DNA of 64,000 nt, from NCBI GenBank assembly GCA_046733335.1, contig JBKPOX010000084.1, positions 6,911 through 70,910 of the forward strand, given 5' to 3'. Shown here in pieces: positions 3,058 through 56,931 of this stretch; positions within the stretch are counted from its first letter, which is position 1, and the number at the start of each line of letters is the position of its first letter. The stretch is from Actinomycetota bacterium (lineage in GTDB: Bacteria; Actinomycetota; Thermoleophilia; Solirubrobacterales; 70-9). The notes beneath the pieces were generated by a model, which did no database searches, was not told the origin of the DNA, and saw nothing but the letters and a program-made list of their open reading frames with translations. Both the position numbers and the translations under genes were made by a program.

Positions 3058-3932
3058 CCCGCACCTCCCGCGCGGCCGAGAACGACGCGCTCGGTCCCCG
3101 CCAGGTCGCGCCGCGCCTCGATCCCGGCAAACCCAGCCTCCCGGAACAGCTCCGTCACCGCGGGCGCCTGCCCCTCCCCCACCTCGACGGCGAGTGTGGT
3201 CGAGCTTCTTCCCGGATCGCGAGCGAAAGCTCGACCACACAGCGGGATGAAGTAGCGATAGGAATCCAAGCCGTCGGGGCCCGCCAGCAGCGCCTCGCGC
3301 GGCTCCCAGCGGGTGACCTCGGGCTGGAGCGAGGTCCAGTCGCGCTCGGCGACGTAGGGAAGGTTGGCAAGCACGAGCTCGTGACCGCCCGAGGCTTCGC
3401 GATCGTCGGGAAGGGTTCCTGCGAGGAAGCTCACGCAGTCGACCAGGCCCAGGCGCTCCGCGTTCGCGCGGGCGACCTGCAGCGCCCCGGGCGAGGTGTC
3501 GGTCGCGGTCACCTCGCACTCCGGCAGCTCGTCGGCTACGGCGAGCGCGATCGCCCCCGAGCCGGTGCCGACGTCGAGCAGGCGCCGCGGCCGCAGCTCC
3601 AGCGATAGCTCGACCAGCAGCTCGGTCTCGGGGCGCGGGATCAGCACCCGGCGGTCGACCGCCAGCTCCAGGCGGCGGAAGCCTTTGCGGCCGAGGATGT
3701 AGGCGACCGGCTCCCGGCGCAGGCGCCGCCGCACCAGCTCGCCGAAGCGGCGCGCCGCCGGCGGCGGGATCTCGGCGGCGGGATCGGCGAAGAGGGCCGC
3801 CCGCTCCCACCCCCCGGCCTCGGCGAGCAGCAGCTCGGCGGCGAGGCGGGCGTCCTCGACGCCCGCCGCACTCATCGCCTCGACCGCCGCCGAGAGAGCT
3901 TCGCCGGCGGTTGCGCCGGCCGTGGCCACCAT
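3054..3932 (-). CDS. prmC: release-factor glutamine N5-methyltransferase
   Basis: Motifs: EPVAYILGRKGFRRLELAVDRRVLIPRPETE, LLDVGTGSGAIALA (SAM motif I), ANLPYV (motif IV variant). The ATG shares one nucleotide with the prfA stop (TGATG). Classic prfA-prmC order. Confidence 0.9.
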   Translation of the reverse strand: MVATAGATAGEALSAAVEAMSAAGVEDARLAAELLLAEAGGWERAALFADPAAEIPPPAARRFGELVRRRLRREPVAYILGRKGFRRLELAVDRRVLIPRPETELLVELSLELRPRRLLDVGTGSGAIALAVADELPECEVTATDTSPGALQVARANAERLGLVDCVSFLAGTLPDDREASGGHELVLANLPYVAERDWTSLQPEVTRWEPREALLAGPDGLDSYRYFIPLCGRAFARDPGRSSTTLAVEVGEGQAPAVTELFREAGFAGIEARRDLAGTERVVLGRAGGAG

Positions 3933-9498: not shown

Positions 9499-10935
9499 GT
9501 GTCTGTGCGGAACGCGATCGGAGCCCTGCTGCTCGGGGGTGCGACCCTGGTGATCCTCCACGACTGGATGGGGATCGGCGGCGCCGGGCTCGACGTCGCG
9601 ATCAACGGCGTCGCCTACGACACGGTTGTCGTCTGCGCCGGCCTCGCCTGCCTGACCAGGGCTCGACGGGGCGGACCGGAGCGCGGCGCCTGGATCGCGA
9701 TCGCCGCCGCCGTGCTCGCCTGGGCGGCGGGCGAGATCTGGTGGACGCTGTACATCGAAGGCAATCCGAACGCCCCCTATCCCTCCCCCGCCGATCTCGG
9801 CTACCTCGGCTTCTACCCCCTGGCCGTCCTCGGGCTCTACCTGCTGGTCAGGGCGCGGGCCCGCGAGCTCGATCCACGGCTCTGGATGGACGGCCTGATC
9901 GCCGCGCTCGGAACCGGGGCCCTGGGAGCGGCACTGCTCTTCGAGTTCGTCGCCGACCGCACCAGCGGCACGGCGATCGAAGTGGCGACCACCCTCGCCT
10001 ATCCCTTCGGCGACGTGGTCCTGGTCTCGCTTGTGGTCGGAGTGATCGCGCTCACCCGCTGGCGCCCCGGCAGGACCTGGACGCTGCTGCTCGCCGGGCT
10101 GACGGTGATGGCGGTCGCCGACGTCGCCTTCACCCTCCAGACCTACGAAGCGACGGTACCGGGTGGCGACTGGGTCGAACCGATCTACCTGATCTCGGCG
10201 GTCCTGATCGGGGCCGAGGCCTGGCAGCCCGAGGCGGACCGCATCCTCCCCGACGCCCGCTTCGACGGCTGGCGCGAAATGGTCGTCCCGGGGATCGTCG
10301 CGGTGGCGATGGTCGCCCTCGTCGTCATGCAGTACTTCAGCCACGCCAGCGCCCTGACGACCGTGCTCTGGTCGACGACGATGCTGGCGGTGATCGGCCG
10401 GCTCGCGCTCAGCCTGCGCGAGAACAAGCGGCTGCTCGAACAGGTTCGGACCGACCGGTTGACCGGCCTCGGCAGCCAGGCGAGGCTGCAGATGGACCTC
10501 GAGCGCCGCGGGCGCTCGCCCGGTGGACCGCTGGCCCTGATCCTCCTCGACCTCAACGGGTTCAAGCGCTACAACGACACCTTCGGCCACCCGGCGGGCG
10601 ACGCGATTCTCGGGGAGCTGGGGAGGAAGCTGGGTGAAGCGGTGGCGTCGGAGGGGACCGCCTACCGCCTCGGCGGCGACGAGTTCCTCGTCCTGATCGA
10701 CGGCGCCGCCGATCGGGAGGGGGTCTGCAGACGCGCCGCGGAAGCGCTGAGCGCCCGCGGGCCCGGATACGAGCTCAGCGCCGCCTGGGGTCAGGCGGCC
10801 GTACCGGAGGAGGCGGCGACGCCGAGCGAGGCGATGCAGCTCGCCGACGTACGGATGTACGCGCAGAAGGAGTCCCGGCGCCTGGCCGGGCCCCTATCGG
10901 CCCCCGACCGCGAAGCCCTCGAGCAGCGTCACTAG
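9499..10935 (+). CDS. membrane-bound diguanylate cyclase (GGDEF domain)
   Basis: About 300 aa of multi-TM N-terminal domain, then [14 protein letters not shown]...[25 protein letters not shown]...[12 protein letters not shown] (GGDEF with an RxxD-like site upstream). Confidence 0.9.
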
Positions 10936-52982: not shown

Positions 52983-53015
52983 GTCGAAGGGCGGGCCATC
53001 GGCCCGCCCTTCGAC
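52983..53015 (-). terminator. 15-bp perfect GC hairpin right after pilA (terminator/attenuator candidate)
   Basis: GTCGAAGGGCGGGCC (52983-52997) is the exact reverse complement of 53001-53015. It begins 41 nt after the pilA stop. On the minus strand it is followed by GUUUCCU. Confidence 0.5.
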
Positions 53016-53055: not shown

Positions 53056-53532
53056 CTATTGACTCCAGTCACCCGGAGACGGGGACGGGCAGCCGCCGCT
53101 TCCGGGGTTGCTGCAGGAATAGACCAGCGACCCATCGGCGTTGCGGACCAGGGTGAAGACGGTGGCTTTACCACCCGTCGCCTGGTTCGAGATCGTGTAA
53201 CCCCCGTCCGGGGTGTCCGGGGTGATGGTGTAGCCGCCGCCGGTGGTCGGGATCGTCGGCTCGACCGTGTGCAGCACCGACTGGATGCAGCTGTCGTACA
53301 CGTTGCCGTGTTCGGTGGCGCACGTCTCCATCGCGACCTGGGCGGTGTGGACGTTCTCCTTGGCCTTCGCGTCGCCTGCCTTTTCCTTCTGGTTGAAGAA
53401 GGCGGGCAGCGCAATAGCGGCCAGGATGCCGAGGATGAGCATGACGACGAGAAGCTCGATCAGGGTGAACCCCGCCTCGCTATCGCCGTTGAGCCGGGCG
53501 CCAACCTTGGCCCGGAGATTCTGGAGAAACAT
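53056..53532 (-). CDS. pilA: major type IV pilin
   Basis: MFLQNLRAKVGARLNGDSEAG-FTLIELLVVMLILGILAAIALPAF is a class III signal peptide with E5. 158 aa with a C-terminal Cys pair. AGGAGG lies 8 nt before the ATG. Confidence 0.9.
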   Translation of the reverse strand: MFLQNLRAKVGARLNGDSEAGFTLIELLVVMLILGILAAIALPAFFNQKEKAGDAKAKENVHTAQVAMETCATEHGNVYDSCIQSVLHTVEPTIPTTGGGYTITPDTPDGGYTISNQATGGKATVFTLVRNADGSLVYSCSNPGSGGCPSPSPGDWSQ

Positions 53533-53602
53533 TAGAGACCTCCTATGGTCCTAATCGTTTGCGCCAGAGCCCCGTCGCGTGAAGCCACGTGGTGTCTGTC
53601 GA

Positions 53603-53690
53603 CCCCGGTGGTAGCCCGGCTGACTCCCCCGAGGGAGTCCCGTCGGCTTTGCGCCCCCGCCTCGCAGCGAGTTTGCCTTTTGCACCGAGG
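53603..53690 (-). promoter_or_regulatory. c-di-GMP-I (GEMM-I)-like riboswitch candidate in the pilA 5' leader
   Basis: Minus-strand RNA: CCUCGGUG-CAAAAGGCAAAC-UCGCUGCGAGGCGGG-GGCGCAAAGCC-GACGG-GACUCCC-UCGG-GGGAGUC-AGCCGGGCUAC-CACCGGGG. It has an 8-bp closing stem (one G-U pair) and an internal 7-bp hairpin. The blocks GGCAAAC and (G/A)CGCAAAGCC are the most conserved GEMM-I blocks as I recall them from Vc2 (GGGCAAACC...GGGACGCAAAGCC). Confidence 0.5.
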
Positions 53691-53704
53691 CACTGGCAGA
53701 TTCA

Positions 53705-54970
53705 TCACAGAGCGTTAATCGACCGACTTGAAGATTCCTCAATCCCCGAAATTTGGGCTTCATCTAGAAAAAATTCGTGATCTCGACGCTCGGGCTGCTC
53801 GCGGAGCCCCTCAGCCGACCAGAGAAAGCCGACGATCGCCCCTCCGACAACGACGAACAAGGCGATGTAGGCGAGGTTGTAGGTGGACACATCGTCGAGC
53901 TGCAGCGACCACTGGCGCAGCGCCAAGGCGACGGCCGCGCCGAGGAGGCCGCGCAGCGGCAGCGAGCGAGCGGAAAAGGCGTCCCAGCCGAGCAGCGCCA
54001 GCAGCAGCGGCTCGAGGTAGTAGATGTTGTCGACGGGGTCCAGGGCGCAGCGCAGCAGTGCCAGCAATGCCAGCAGCGCCATCGCGTCCCCCGCCCCCAG
54101 GTGCAGCCGGCCCCGCCTTCTGGCCAGCAGGAGGGGAAGGGCGAAGACGAGCAGGACGATCAGCGGGTGCGCCAGCGTCCCGACGAGCGCCGGCACCGTC
54201 TGGACGCGGGCGACGAGGATCTCCGGCTGTTCCGCCACCACCGCGGTCCTGGTCGAGGCCAGCGGGTACCAGACGCTCTCCGGGGTGACCGCGCCGCCGG
54301 TGTCGGCGGCGTTGCCGTGTACCTCCCCGAAGCTCTCGGGCGAGGCTACGAGCGGCGGCAGCATGAAGAGCGCGGCGATCGCGAGCGCGGCGGCGGCAAC
54401 CGGCAACCGCCTCCGAGGGAGCGCCATCACGGTCGGCAGGATCGCGATCACAGCCCATTGCTTCGACGCCAGCGCGAGCCCGAGCAGGACCGCGGCCCAG
54501 CCCCGCCTCTCGTCGGCCGCGGCAGCGACGGCGCCCACCGCCAGCGCGGCGGTCAGGATCTCCTCCGGGTGCCCGCCCTGGAGCGCGGCCAGGGTCAGCG
54601 GGTTGACGACGCAGAGCCCGCCGATCAGCCACTGCGCCGACGGCGAGGCGCCGCGACGCTGGGCGACGCGGGCGAGGTAGATGCCGAGCCCGCCGGCCGC
54701 GAGCACGCATGGGAATGCGGCGAGCTTGTAGGCGATCAGCTGCGAGCCCGCGCCGGCCGCCGCCGCGAACGGGGTCTGCACCAGCGTCGAGAAGATCCCC
54801 ATCATCGCTTTGGCCGAGAGGTAATCCCCTAGGTGGCCGTGGCCGAGCGCGTCGATCGCCGGCCAGGAATCCTGAGGCCAATCGCCCATCGAGGCGACTT
54901 GGGAGACCATGTAGGCGCTCGCGAGGACGATCCCCGCAAGCGGCAGCAACCGTCTGGCGAGCGCGGTCAT
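53705..54970 (-). CDS. polytopic membrane protein, DUF2029/GT87-like putative glycosyltransferase
   Basis: 421 aa from ATG 54970, which makes an ATGA overlap with the upstream stop. About 10 predicted TM helices, in the style of GT-C/DUF2029 family proteins. Family assignment is pattern-level only. Confidence 0.5.
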   Translation of the reverse strand: MTALARRLLPLAGIVLASAYMVSQVASMGDWPQDSWPAIDALGHGHLGDYLSAKAMMGIFSTLVQTPFAAAAGAGSQLIAYKLAAFPCVLAAGGLGIYLARVAQRRGASPSAQWLIGGLCVVNPLTLAALQGGHPEEILTAALAVGAVAAAADERRGWAAVLLGLALASKQWAVIAILPTVMALPRRRLPVAAAALAIAALFMLPPLVASPESFGEVHGNAADTGGAVTPESVWYPLASTRTAVVAEQPEILVARVQTVPALVGTLAHPLIVLLVFALPLLLARRRGRLHLGAGDAMALLALLALLRCALDPVDNIYYLEPLLLALLGWDAFSARSLPLRGLLGAAVALALRQWSLQLDDVSTYNLAYIALFVVVGGAIVGFLWSAEGLREQPERRDHEFFLDEAQISGIEESSSRSINAL

Positions 54971-56931
54971 GCTCCGGTATCGGCAGCCCGAGCCGGGCCT
55001 TTTAGCGGCAACCGGCCCACCCGCTGGGCGAAGAAGTCGAGCCGGATCGGCCGCCCCTCGGCACCGGCGATGCGGATCGTGATCGAGTCGGCGTCGGGGG
55101 CGAGCGCGAATGGCTCGGGATAGTCGGCCGCACCGGCAAGGCGCAGGATCAAGCCGTCCACCGCGGTCGCCGGCAACAGCCGCCACCGCCGCCCGCCGCC
55201 CAGGTGCACCGTCCTCGGCCGCGCCCTGTAGAGGCCGTTGCGAAGGGACTCCCACCCCGCGACCTCGACGCCGTGGATGCGGGCGAACACCATCTCGGTG
55301 GGGTGCGGAGGAGCGGGGACGGGGATCGCGACCCCCGTCGTCGCCCGCGCCGACCCGATCCGCCTCGGGGCCCCGCAGCGATCGCGGGCGCGCTCCAACA
55401 GCTGGTAGCGCCCGGTGGTGAGGATCGCGCGGTAGCGGCAGAGCATCTCCCGCATCGCGGCCGGAGACTCCCAACCTGGATAGCGGCCGTCGATCGACCC
55501 CGAGCCCAACCCCGGCTCCCCACCCCGGTACCGCAGGATCGAGGCCGGCCCGCCAGGTCCCTCAAGCGCGGCGGCATTCAGCTCGTCGAGGCCGGGCGTG
55601 TAGGCGCTGTAGGTCTGCGCCACCGGAAGCGGGCGCCAGTTCAGGTCGTAGGCCCAGGCGATCCCGATCTCCCAAGGGTCGATCTGCACGGGCCGCTGGC
55701 CGAGGGCGGCGAGGATCCGCGGATCGAGCCGGTAGGTGGCCCGCATCGACGCCCGCGCTTCGTCGACCAGTCGCTGCCGGTAGCTCGGATCAGACAGCGC
55801 CCTCGTGCCTTCGCGCAGTGCGTCCAGGTGGGGAGTCGCCTGGAGGGAGTGCCAAAGCGAGGAGCCCGGGGTCGCGAAGAGGGCCAGACCGGTCAGCGCC
55901 ACGACCAGGCCCTGGCCGAAGACCCGCCGCGATCCGACCGCGCTGCCGGCCACGGCCACTGCGGCTGCGGCGACCAGAACGAAGAATTCGGGGGTGTTCC
56001 CGTGGCCTTGGCGGACGAACCCCTGCTTGAAGGAGGCGAAGCAGAAGAAGGCGACGAGGGCGACCGATACGGCGCGCCCTCCCCGGCTCCCCCCGCTGCG
56101 GAGAACCGCAGTGGCGATGACCACCGCGGCGGTGCTGGCAATCGCGGCGGGCAGGGCCCACTCGGCGGTGAGGATGTCGGTCGCCATCGCGCTGGAGTAG
56201 CCGGAGACCACTTCCGCCTGCCGCGCGAAGAACGCCGGAAGGAGTCCGAGCTCCTGCCCTGCCGCCAGCCAGAGCAGCGGCAACCCGAGGCAGAACGCCG
56301 GCACGAACATCGCCAGGCTCCGCTTTCTCGCCGGCAGCCCTGCGAGCGCGATCAGCACCAGGCCGAGGACGTCCATCCCGTAATTGGATTTCCCAAGCAG
56401 CTCGAGCGCTGCGAGGAAGCCCCCTCCCACCGCGAGGACCGGCGCCGCGAACGCCGGCGGATCGTCGTCGAGGGCGGCGAAAGCCCAGAGGAAGACGAGG
56501 AGAGTGACGGCTGCCCCGAGGCGCCCGACGACCAGGAGGCAGTAGCAGGCCGCGACCGCGATCGGCAGGGGAAGCGCGCGTCGGGCCGTCCAGAGTAGGG
56601 CGACGGCGACGGCGACGTGGGTCAGCGCCTGGTAGGCGAAGGCGATCGCCCACAGCGCCTGGTCGACGAGGACCGGCACCTCGAGGAACCCGAGCGGGCC
56701 GTAGGTCCAGACGAAGTCGCGACCGAAATCCAGCCCCTCGGCGTGGGCCAGATGCAGACCGATGATCCAGGACGCATCCGGTCCGACCCCGGGCACGATG
56801 CCGTTGATCGGCCACGCGAGGGCGGCGAGGGCGAGCCCGAGGAAGGAGGTGGAGGTGAGGGTCCGGGCGAGCCGTCCGAACTCCGCGGTTCGCCTCCCAC
56901 CCAGCCCGATGTCCGTCGCGGCCGTCGCCAT
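54967..56931 (-). CDS. large polytopic membrane protein with ~250-aa C-terminal soluble domain (GT-C-like?)
   Basis: 654 aa. About 350 aa of TM helices, then a soluble domain (PWEIGIAWAYDLNWRPLPVAQTYSAYTPGLD...). The architecture resembles membrane glycosyl/arabinosyl-transferases. No specific motif recognised. Confidence 0.5.
   Translation of the reverse strand: MATAATDIGLGGRRTAEFGRLARTLTSTSFLGLALAALAWPINGIVPGVGPDASWIIGLHLAHAEGLDFGRDFVWTYGPLGFLEVPVLVDQALWAIAFAYQALTHVAVAVALLWTARRALPLPIAVAACYCLLVVGRLGAAVTLLVFLWAFAALDDDPPAFAAPVLAVGGGFLAALELLGKSNYGMDVLGLVLIALAGLPARKRSLAMFVPAFCLGLPLLWLAAGQELGLLPAFFARQAEVVSGYSSAMATDILTAEWALPAAIASTAAVVIATAVLRSGGSRGGRAVSVALVAFFCFASFKQGFVRQGHGNTPEFFVLVAAAAVAVAGSAVGSRRVFGQGLVVALTGLALFATPGSSLWHSLQATPHLDALREGTRALSDPSYRQRLVDEARASMRATYRLDPRILAALGQRPVQIDPWEIGIAWAYDLNWRPLPVAQTYSAYTPGLDELNAAALEGPGGPASILRYRGGEPGLGSGSIDGRYPGWESPAAMREMLCRYRAILTTGRYQLLERARDRCGAPRRIGSARATTGVAIPVPAPPHPTEMVFARIHGVEVAGWESLRNGLYRARPRTVHLGGGRRWRLLPATAVDGLILRLAGAADYPEPFALAPDADSITIRIAGAEGRPIRLDFFAQRVGRLPLKGPARAADTGA

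Follow-up and report, generated by a model that had tools for sequence, protein, structure and literature searches.

The window analysed here, a 64-kb stretch (64,000 nucleotides, nt) of contig JBKPOX010000084.1 from an actinobacterium of the order Solirubrobacterales, contains a type IV pilin gene whose leader carries an RNA element of the c-di-GMP-I (GEMM-I) riboswitch family, the class-I receptors for cyclic di-GMP (c-di-GMP). The pilin gene lies at 53532–53056, on the minus strand like every leader feature described below. It was recognised in the open reading frame (ORF) listing and by an N_methyl motif match, and encodes 158 amino acids, with a 21-residue leader peptide followed by the mature end G|FTLIELL. 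It had been taken for the major pilin gene in an initial annotation; that it is a type IV pilin gene is borne out by the N_methyl motif and by the surrounding genes for PilB, PilD and PilM/N/O. The leader of this gene is about 176 nt long, and 74 nt separate the 3′ end of the aptamer from the pilin AUG, with the aptamer in sense orientation within the 5′ leader.

The covariance-model search that the initial annotation had proposed places RF01051 (c-di-GMP-I) at 53607–53687 with a score of 59.3 bits (gathering score, 35; E = 4.6e-09 in the 64-kb window). The match covers the full model (positions 1–87 of 87) and is the only one at gathering score in an Rfam 15 scan of the window. The c-di-GMP-II model RF01786, named as a control for that search, has no match at gathering score in the window and none at E ≤ 10 within 53400–53850, the 451-nt region used for small-region Rfam searches. 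On this sequence evidence the pilin leader very probably holds a c-di-GMP-I (GEMM-I, RF01051) riboswitch controlling the pilin gene. Sense orientation in the 5′ leader of a surface or motility gene is shared with the c-di-GMP-I family at large.

We retrieved 80 orthologous loci by their pilin protein (55–80% pilin identity), all from metagenome-assembled genomes and nearly all labelled Solirubrobacterales or Actinomycetes; a look-up for an identical pilin protein in public assemblies gave no record. A c-di-GMP-I clan model matches at gathering score in 60 of the 80, between −155 and −75 from the pilin start. Covariation was assessed on a MAFFT alignment of 59 distinct leaders. The aptamer fold is paired in 98.5% of cells, with five pairs changed on both sides; 500 shuffles all fall short of the observed values, and controls slid out of register are only 32–52% paired. 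A look at orthologous leaders had been suggested beforehand, and its outcome favours the element, which is kept in these 60 loci; in the 59 aligned leaders closing stem P1 is 100% paired and hairpin P3 shows compensatory changes.

P1 is the 8-base-pair (bp) outer stem already described in the initial annotation, in which CCUCGGUG (53690–53683) pairs with CACCGGGG (53610–53603) and contains a single G–U pair (U53688–G53605). Both strands are fully paired in the 59 leaders, the only changes being C/U opposite G. The elements previously placed inside P1 (CAAAAGGCAAAC, GGCGCAAAGCC, a 7-bp UCGG-capped hairpin, GACUCCC/GGGAGUC, and AGCCGGGCUAC) are all found as described. In the covariance-model alignment the P2 hairpin (53676–53651) consists of a G–C and a C–G pair, an AAA/GGC internal loop, a 6-bp stem and a GCGA loop at 53665–53662, and the P3 hairpin (53648–53613) has the UCGG loop and lacks the 11-nt receptor positions. 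P2 and P3 are 97–99% paired with compensatory changes: alignment columns 65:80 of P3 are AU in 25 leaders, GC in 19 and GU in 13, and columns 37:42 of P2 occur as UG, CG and UA. The junction blocks GGCAAAC and ACGCAAAGCC are invariant except for a G at position 43.

This alignment revises one detail of the earlier fold, in which the first hairpin was drawn as CUCG-CUG-CGAG and seemed to lack a GNRA loop; the covariance model instead gives CUCGCU-GCGA-GGCGGG, with the GNRA loop GCGA. The U33–A41 pair of the CUG-loop version is a C–A mismatch in 44 of the 59 leaders, whereas the covariance-model stem is 99% paired. The tetraloop is GCGA or GUGA in 65 of 65 distinct aptamers, and the columns of the RF01051 consensus that form the 11-nt tetraloop receptor are deleted in the window aptamer (gaps at CUAA and uAu). 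Members of the c-di-GMP-I family with a GYRA loop often lack this receptor, and by its sequence the element is of a sub-type with a GYGA tetraloop and no 11-nt receptor. Like the Vc2 aptamer of Vibrio cholerae (RF01051), it matches the full-length model, has P1 closing two side-by-side hairpins, and has the GGCAAAC and CGCAAAGCC junction blocks, a GNRA loop on the first hairpin and the residues G20, A47 and C92. Unlike Vc2, it has a short second hairpin without the 11-nt receptor, a GYGA rather than a GAAA loop, a G at position 43 with a covarying change near G20, a platform without a terminator, and a host in the Thermoleophilia.

The equivalents of G20 (53677), A47 (53650) and C92 (53611), assigned by alignment to the RF01051 consensus, are invariant in the 59 leaders. 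In the Vc2 crystal structures we take G20 to recognise one guanine of the ligand, A47 to intercalate between the two ligand bases and C92 to pair with the second guanine. The canonical identity of all three residues makes c-di-GMP the expected ligand, rather than cyclic GMP–AMP (cGAMP) or the ligand of the c-di-GMP-I-GGC variant (RF03167), for which we know of no identified ligand. It is very unlikely that the aptamer senses one of these others, although the GGC variant resembles it in overall shape and length: RF03167 gave the better E-value in the small-region search, but its 53.4 bits for the window fall short of its gathering score of 59, a score that nine related leaders do pass (59.4–62.8 bits). 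The RF03167 consensus, ...ACGCGAAgCc, has its defining G at position 47 after ACGC, whereas the window and all 59 leaders read CGCAAAGC, that is, A. For 3′3′-cGAMP, which the initial annotation had entertained as an alternative ligand, the sequence is similarly unfavourable, position 20 being G in the window and all 59 leaders and not the A of cGAMP-selective aptamers. The GEMM-Ib riboswitches of Geobacter that sense 3′3′-cGAMP have the same fold, are associated with pilus and extracellular electron-transfer genes and act by transcription antitermination; they differ from the element here in having A at position 20 and in the terminator, which is absent here. Eight aptamers of the set (L002, L036, L038, L044, L058, L071, L074 and L077) are labelled c-di-GMP-I-GGC by Rfam despite their A47. 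That aptamers with A47 can pass the RF03167 cut-off suggests that this model resembles short, high-GC aptamers in general shape and can mislabel canonical ones.

The G at position 43, an A-to-G change in the second junction block that had been counted against the match, proves harmless. Position 43 is presumably not a ligand contact in the Vc2 structure, and here it covaries with a second base, two nucleotides 5′ of G20: G43 accompanies an A at that site, and A43 a C, the latter in 8 of 10 cases as against 1 of 55 G43 cases. The two unpaired positions correspond to 53679 and 53654 of the window (alignment columns 24 and 49), and their covariation suggests a tertiary contact rather than a defect.

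With an E-value of 4.6e-09, all core positions intact and conservation with covariation in more than 130 distinct leaders, it is most improbable that the RF01051 match arose by chance or marks a decayed element without function, even though such relatives do exist, L031 having no match at E ≤ 10 and L080, L191 and L153 being deletion forms. L191 and L153 have lost P2 and P3 and retain the P1 strands, the platform and the start of an upstream ORF, and L080 retains the platform alone. L031 has a diverged aptamer-like stretch with A at the G20 position and a non-GNRA loop, and there the upstream frame is continuous with that of the pilin; considered as an A20 variant, the stretch gave no GEMM match at E ≤ 10, and decay is the best reading of it. 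L057 carries two c-di-GMP-I aptamers of equal score (2846–2925 and 3673–3752), one before the pilin and the other about 220 nt past its end, which suggests a tandem duplication of the leader-plus-pilin unit.

Upstream of the aptamer lies a conserved motif (53743–53716) with a −35-like ATTGAG at 53743–53738, a 14-nt spacer and a −10 element GTCGATTA at 53723–53716. The corresponding motif T(A/C/T)AAG-N14-15-G(C/T)CGAT(G/T)A is found at a fixed distance in nearly all 80 loci, whether or not the aptamer is present, about 20–50 nt upstream of CTGCCAG in the orthologues (L001–L080). It resembles a sigma-28/WhiG-type promoter; the class assignment is based on TAAA-N15-GCCGATAA, which we take to be the sigma-28/FliA/SigD/WhiG consensus. 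A scan found no sigma-70 promoter at the pilin leader. About 0.2 matches to such a promoter are expected by chance in the window, which contains a better second copy, TAAAC-N15-GCCGATAG (52961–52934, minus strand), in front of a gene for an 803-amino-acid secreted protein. A sigma-28-type promoter would link the pilus genes to a sigma factor of motility or development. A G exactly 8 nt past the −10 box is conserved in aptamer-bearing and aptamer-less leaders alike, as the G of GUGAUGAAU in the former and of GUAAA or GCAAA in the latter, and is likely to be the transcript start.

Between the aptamer and the start codon a terminator scan finds no intrinsic terminator; the single site that it reports is a hairpin at the ribosome-binding site (RBS), and in our models the expression platform looks translational. 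This RBS hairpin (53560–53527), AAAC-G-AUUAGGACC / AUAGGA / GGUCUCUAAU-GUUU, is predicted in 80 of 80 distinct RBS variants, shows compensatory stem changes among them and also forms in aptamer-less leaders. It pairs the last two G residues of the Shine–Dalgarno (SD) sequence AGGAGG (53544–53539) and the pilin AUG (53532–53530). Across the 59 leaders hardly any change is seen in the 40 nt that separate aptamer and RBS, in keeping with bases that each take part in two folds.

RNAalifold on the 59 leaders returns P2, P3 and two further helices, P0 and H, through which each strand of P1 has a predicted alternative partner. The 5′ strand of P0, GCCAGUGCCUCG (53697–53686), overlaps the P1 5′ strand with its 3′ part and is invariant but for C/U opposite G; its 3′ strand, CGGGGCUCUGGC (53574–53563), has pilin codons 3–7 as an alternative partner, by RNAalifold and fold evaluation. 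Hairpin H, CCACCGGGGUC-GACA-GACACCACGUGG (53611–53585; −11.7 kcal/mol), takes up the P1 3′ strand together with C92. Pilin codons 3–7 (CCAGA...CUCC, 53524–53514) can pair with 53573–53564 and are invariant, including at synonymous sites; they show no covariation. When P1 is imposed, the freed UCUGG is predicted to pair with CCAGA in codons 3–5, and GGGG can pair with CUCC in codons 6–7, extending the RBS hairpin from 13 to 22 pairs.

These alternatives would make a switch. Without ligand, the P1 3′ strand would fold into the local hairpin H (53611–53585), and the P1 5′ strand and the upstream GCCAG would pair with CGGGGCUCUGGC to give the long closing helix P0. With c-di-GMP bound, P1 would be locked, H and the inner half of P0 would be lost, and the freed CGGGGCUCUGG would pair with pilin codons 3–7, so that the RBS hairpin grows from 13 to 22 pairs and the initiation region is buried. 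Binding of c-di-GMP would thereby lower pilin translation, as in an OFF switch. For the window sequence, the ligand-free fold (P0 + H) is evaluated at −81.3 kcal/mol and the ligand-bound fold (P1 + P0′, GCCAGUG:CACGUGGC, + extended RBS helix) at −79.0 kcal/mol, and other helix combinations are 6–15 kcal/mol worse. In the 59 leaders, forcing P1 gives an optimum 2.3 ± 1.5 kcal/mol higher than forcing P0 + H does, and UCUGG:CCAGA forms in 59 of 59 P1-forced folds. The ligand-binding energy of the c-di-GMP-I class is large compared with a gap of 2.3 kcal/mol, which a tight ligand could pay.

Several observations weigh against this scheme. The sequences of P0, H and the lower RBS helix do not vary, so that covariation lends them no support, and covariation in the extended RBS helix is no better than in shuffles of the MAFFT alignment. 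The unconstrained minimum-free-energy fold of the window leader, at −95.1 kcal/mol, is neither of the two model folds; plain minimum-free-energy folding of the leader was not relied on, the aptamer being broken in the resulting folds. In both constrained ensembles the AGGA of the SD sequence is open and its GG and the AUG are paired, the predicted difference being confined to codons 3–7, and a U-to-C variant in GCCAGYG weakens the P0′ helix of the ligand-bound fold in some leaders. We put the odds on a strand-exchange platform at about even, and those on the OFF direction at even or very slightly better. As a whole, a canonical class-I c-di-GMP riboswitch before the pilin gene is the best explanation of the locus, with a probability of roughly 0.85.

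The pilA1 switch of Clostridioides difficile, the known pilin case among monoderms and a class-II (RF01786) riboswitch that acts as a transcriptional ON switch, likewise places c-di-GMP sensing before the major type IV pilin of a monoderm bacterium, as the sequence indicates here. The two differ in class, no RF01786 match being found at our locus, and in mode, a translational and on balance OFF response being expected here. In C. difficile c-di-GMP reportedly turns pilA1 expression ON (Bordeleau et al. 2015), so that OFF is not the sole precedent in biology. The same aptamer working in that direction here is unlikely, though well short of negligible given how uncertain thermodynamic models are for this leader. 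P0 might, for example, hold the mRNA closed or unstable, or the freed GGGG might compete with the SD sequence for CUCC in codons 3 and 6–7; two such anti-SD-like CUCC motifs do lie just past the AUG, and RNAalifold pairs the GGA of the SD sequence with the UCC of codon 3. However, the RBS hairpin, which covariation supports, is stronger than this SD:CUCC pairing and incompatible with it, and the constitutive P0 of aptamer-less leaders makes more sense if a highly expressed gene has P0 as its permissive state.

An output other than translation initiation, through Rho-dependent termination or RNase access in an exposed C-rich ACAGACACCAC, is improbable. The ligand-bound fold would expose 53602–53591, a stretch of only about 12 nt, which is short for Rho loading. 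Such an output would accord with the absence of an intrinsic terminator between aptamer and start in the scan, and Mycobacterium tuberculosis riboswitches do join translational platforms with Rho termination, the Mbox controlling an upstream ORF (uORF) together with it (PMC12810186).

The strand-exchange elements are not confined to leaders with an aptamer. In seventeen loci that lack it, the promoter and the RBS hairpin are kept, P0 forms a hairpin closed by a small apical loop, and the extended helix could likewise form. The 5′ hairpin GCCAGUGCCUCGG...GGGCUCUGGC is retained, at about −95 to −1 of the pilin start, in aptamer-less leaders L003–L006, L010, L013, L015, L017, L028, L029, L062, L064, L066, L067, L073 and L075. 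From these leaders with P0 and the RBS hairpin, the aptamer and H look to have been inserted into the tip of a pre-existing hairpin and, given the same extended-helix potential, the riboswitch looks grafted onto an older alternative between P0 and the RBS helix.

The leader also contains an uORF of 58 codons (53708–53532 in the ORF listing), with GUG-AUG at the predicted +1 (53708/53705) and UAA at 53534–53532, that spans the whole aptamer and platform and whose stop overlaps the pilin AUG as UAAUG (53534–53530). This raises a further account of the output step, compatible with the identity of the aptamer, in which ribosomes would read the 58 codons of a leaderless uORF, open the RBS hairpin, stop at UAAUG and re-initiate at the pilin. 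A ligand-locked P1/P0′ helix beginning 9–16 nt past the start codon would then hinder loading or early elongation, turning pilin off. We regard output by this route as possible, at somewhat less than even odds.

The argument for it is the reading frame. All three frames of the GC-rich leader are open and each meets a stop within its final 27 nt, which leaves length modulo 3 as the sole informative quantity; the openness of every frame also tempers the case for translation. We compared 55 genome leaders with a metagenome set of 120 further loci, found by scanning Joint Genome Institute (JGI) metagenomes with the platform sequence, that yields 95 distinct complete leaders. The upstream frame stops precisely where the pilin begins in 52 of the 55 and in 92 of the 95. 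The 139 distinct parsable leaders fall into 20 length configurations, 17 of them in frame and the 3 out-of-frame ones singletons, and overlap or adjacency of the stop with the pilin AUG is kept in about 97% of distinct leaders. All recurrent length changes are multiples of three (−3 nt in P3, −3 nt in the linker after H) or are compensated (+1 in J1/2 by −1 in P3; +2 by −2; +1 after H by −1 or +2 in the linker that follows), extra A residues occur only past the stop (UAAAUG), and the 51-nt aptamer deletion of L191 is in frame. The out-of-frame singletons are L020, L055, L103 and L163, two of which are single-G deletions in G-runs, from assemblies that we believe to be nanopore-based. By a rough count, 10 of 13–14 events are in frame (P about 0.002–0.004 if 1/3 is expected), a small number of events because the leaders are closely related. 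A constant spacing requirement was considered as the cause of the compensated changes and fails for the −3 and +3 cases. Coupling to, or the tail of, an upstream gene was likewise rejected: in most loci no long ORF enters GTGATG in any frame, so that upstream genes do not generally read into the GUG site.

The position of the start adds to this, the conserved G 8 nt past the −10 box coinciding with the GUG, whereas aptamer-less leaders have no start codon there; the transcript start is, for its part, a prediction. On the other side, constraint on the RNA accounts for all conservation of the peptide, whose sequence becomes unrelated wherever a stretch is frameshifted, six aptamer-bearing leaders (L034, L039, L043, L050, L059 and L065) lack the AUG, and continuous translation would unfold the aptamer. 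Translation of the uORF is rather less likely than not. A little more tentative still is the full arrangement, in which the riboswitch lies entirely inside a translated leaderless uORF, P1 (about 16 nt past the start) blocks the uORF ribosome and not the pilin RBS directly, and pilin is made by termination–reinitiation. The c-di-GMP-I aptamer class has an extremely slow ligand off-rate; if this arrangement were true, the riboswitch would gate leaderless translation, and ribosome passage would forcibly reset the aptamer.

Actinobacterial precedent exists in M. tuberculosis, where the ppe2 B12 riboswitch controls an uORF whose stop overlaps the ppe2 start, with termination–reinitiation, and where metE has a translated uORF inside the aptamer (PMC11260477). 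Our locus shares with these B12 riboswitches the actinobacterial host, the translational platform (predicted here) and the overlap of the uORF stop with the main start, and with metE the overlap of uORF and aptamer. It is unlike ppe2, where the coupled uORF lies 3′ of the aptamer and has its own SD sequence and where the ligand is of another class; the candidate uORF here would be leaderless and span aptamer and platform, and has frame conservation as its support.

Synonymous sites hardly vary over the first 15 pilin codons (53530–53488). In this high-GC genome Asn is encoded there by AAU, and two CUCC motifs in the stretch can pair with the SD sequence by complementarity. A conserved hairpin, CCGGGC...GCCCGG (53515–53494), lies within the leader-peptide codons. 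Directly 3′ of the pilin stop, at 53015–52982, a GC-rich 15-bp hairpin GUCGAAGGGCGGGCC-GAUG-GGCCCGCCCUUCGAC is followed by GUUUCC. We take it for a probable terminator whose U-tract is weak; the pilin gene would then be monocistronic. A simple terminator scan did not pick it up.

The pilus cluster around the pilin comprises PilB (61129–59345), a GT87-like membrane protein and the pilin itself, followed by the 803-amino-acid secreted protein, a pilin-like protein, the prepilin peptidase PilD (49001–47817) and PilM, PilN and PilO (47810–45074). The GT87-like ORF (53705–55474, minus strand) reads across the pilin promoter and stops at a TGA inside GTGATGAAT. Most other loci have no long ORF reading across the promoter, so the last 30 or so codons of this ORF may not be real coding sequence. 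PilB (minus strand) has a Pfam MshEN domain; as a candidate second c-di-GMP receptor it was rejected, a strict search for the published binding motif RLGxxLLxxGLLxxxxLxxxLxxQ giving no match. Elsewhere in the window, the GGDEF cyclase gene reported at 9499–10935 in the initial annotation is supported by Pfam (GGDEF, E = 3.9e-25) and has an intact GGDEF motif at residue 392.

The c-di-GMP-I riboswitches are a well-understood family, and one before a pilus gene fits its known regulon; the core finding is to that extent confirmatory and detectable by a standard Rfam scan. Full-text literature searches turned up no publication on GEMM riboswitches or on the regulation of pilin in Solirubrobacterales. 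The element places RNA-level c-di-GMP control of type IV pili in this order of uncultured soil actinobacteria. Its orthologues, with aptamer, without aptamer or with in-frame deletions, and with promoter, closing helix and RBS hairpin in common, form a natural comparison set, an illustration of how an mRNA structure already in place can have a riboswitch grafted onto it. The uORF, if translated, would extend the interplay of riboswitch and uORF seen in mycobacteria to cyclic-dinucleotide signalling and to leaderless mRNAs.

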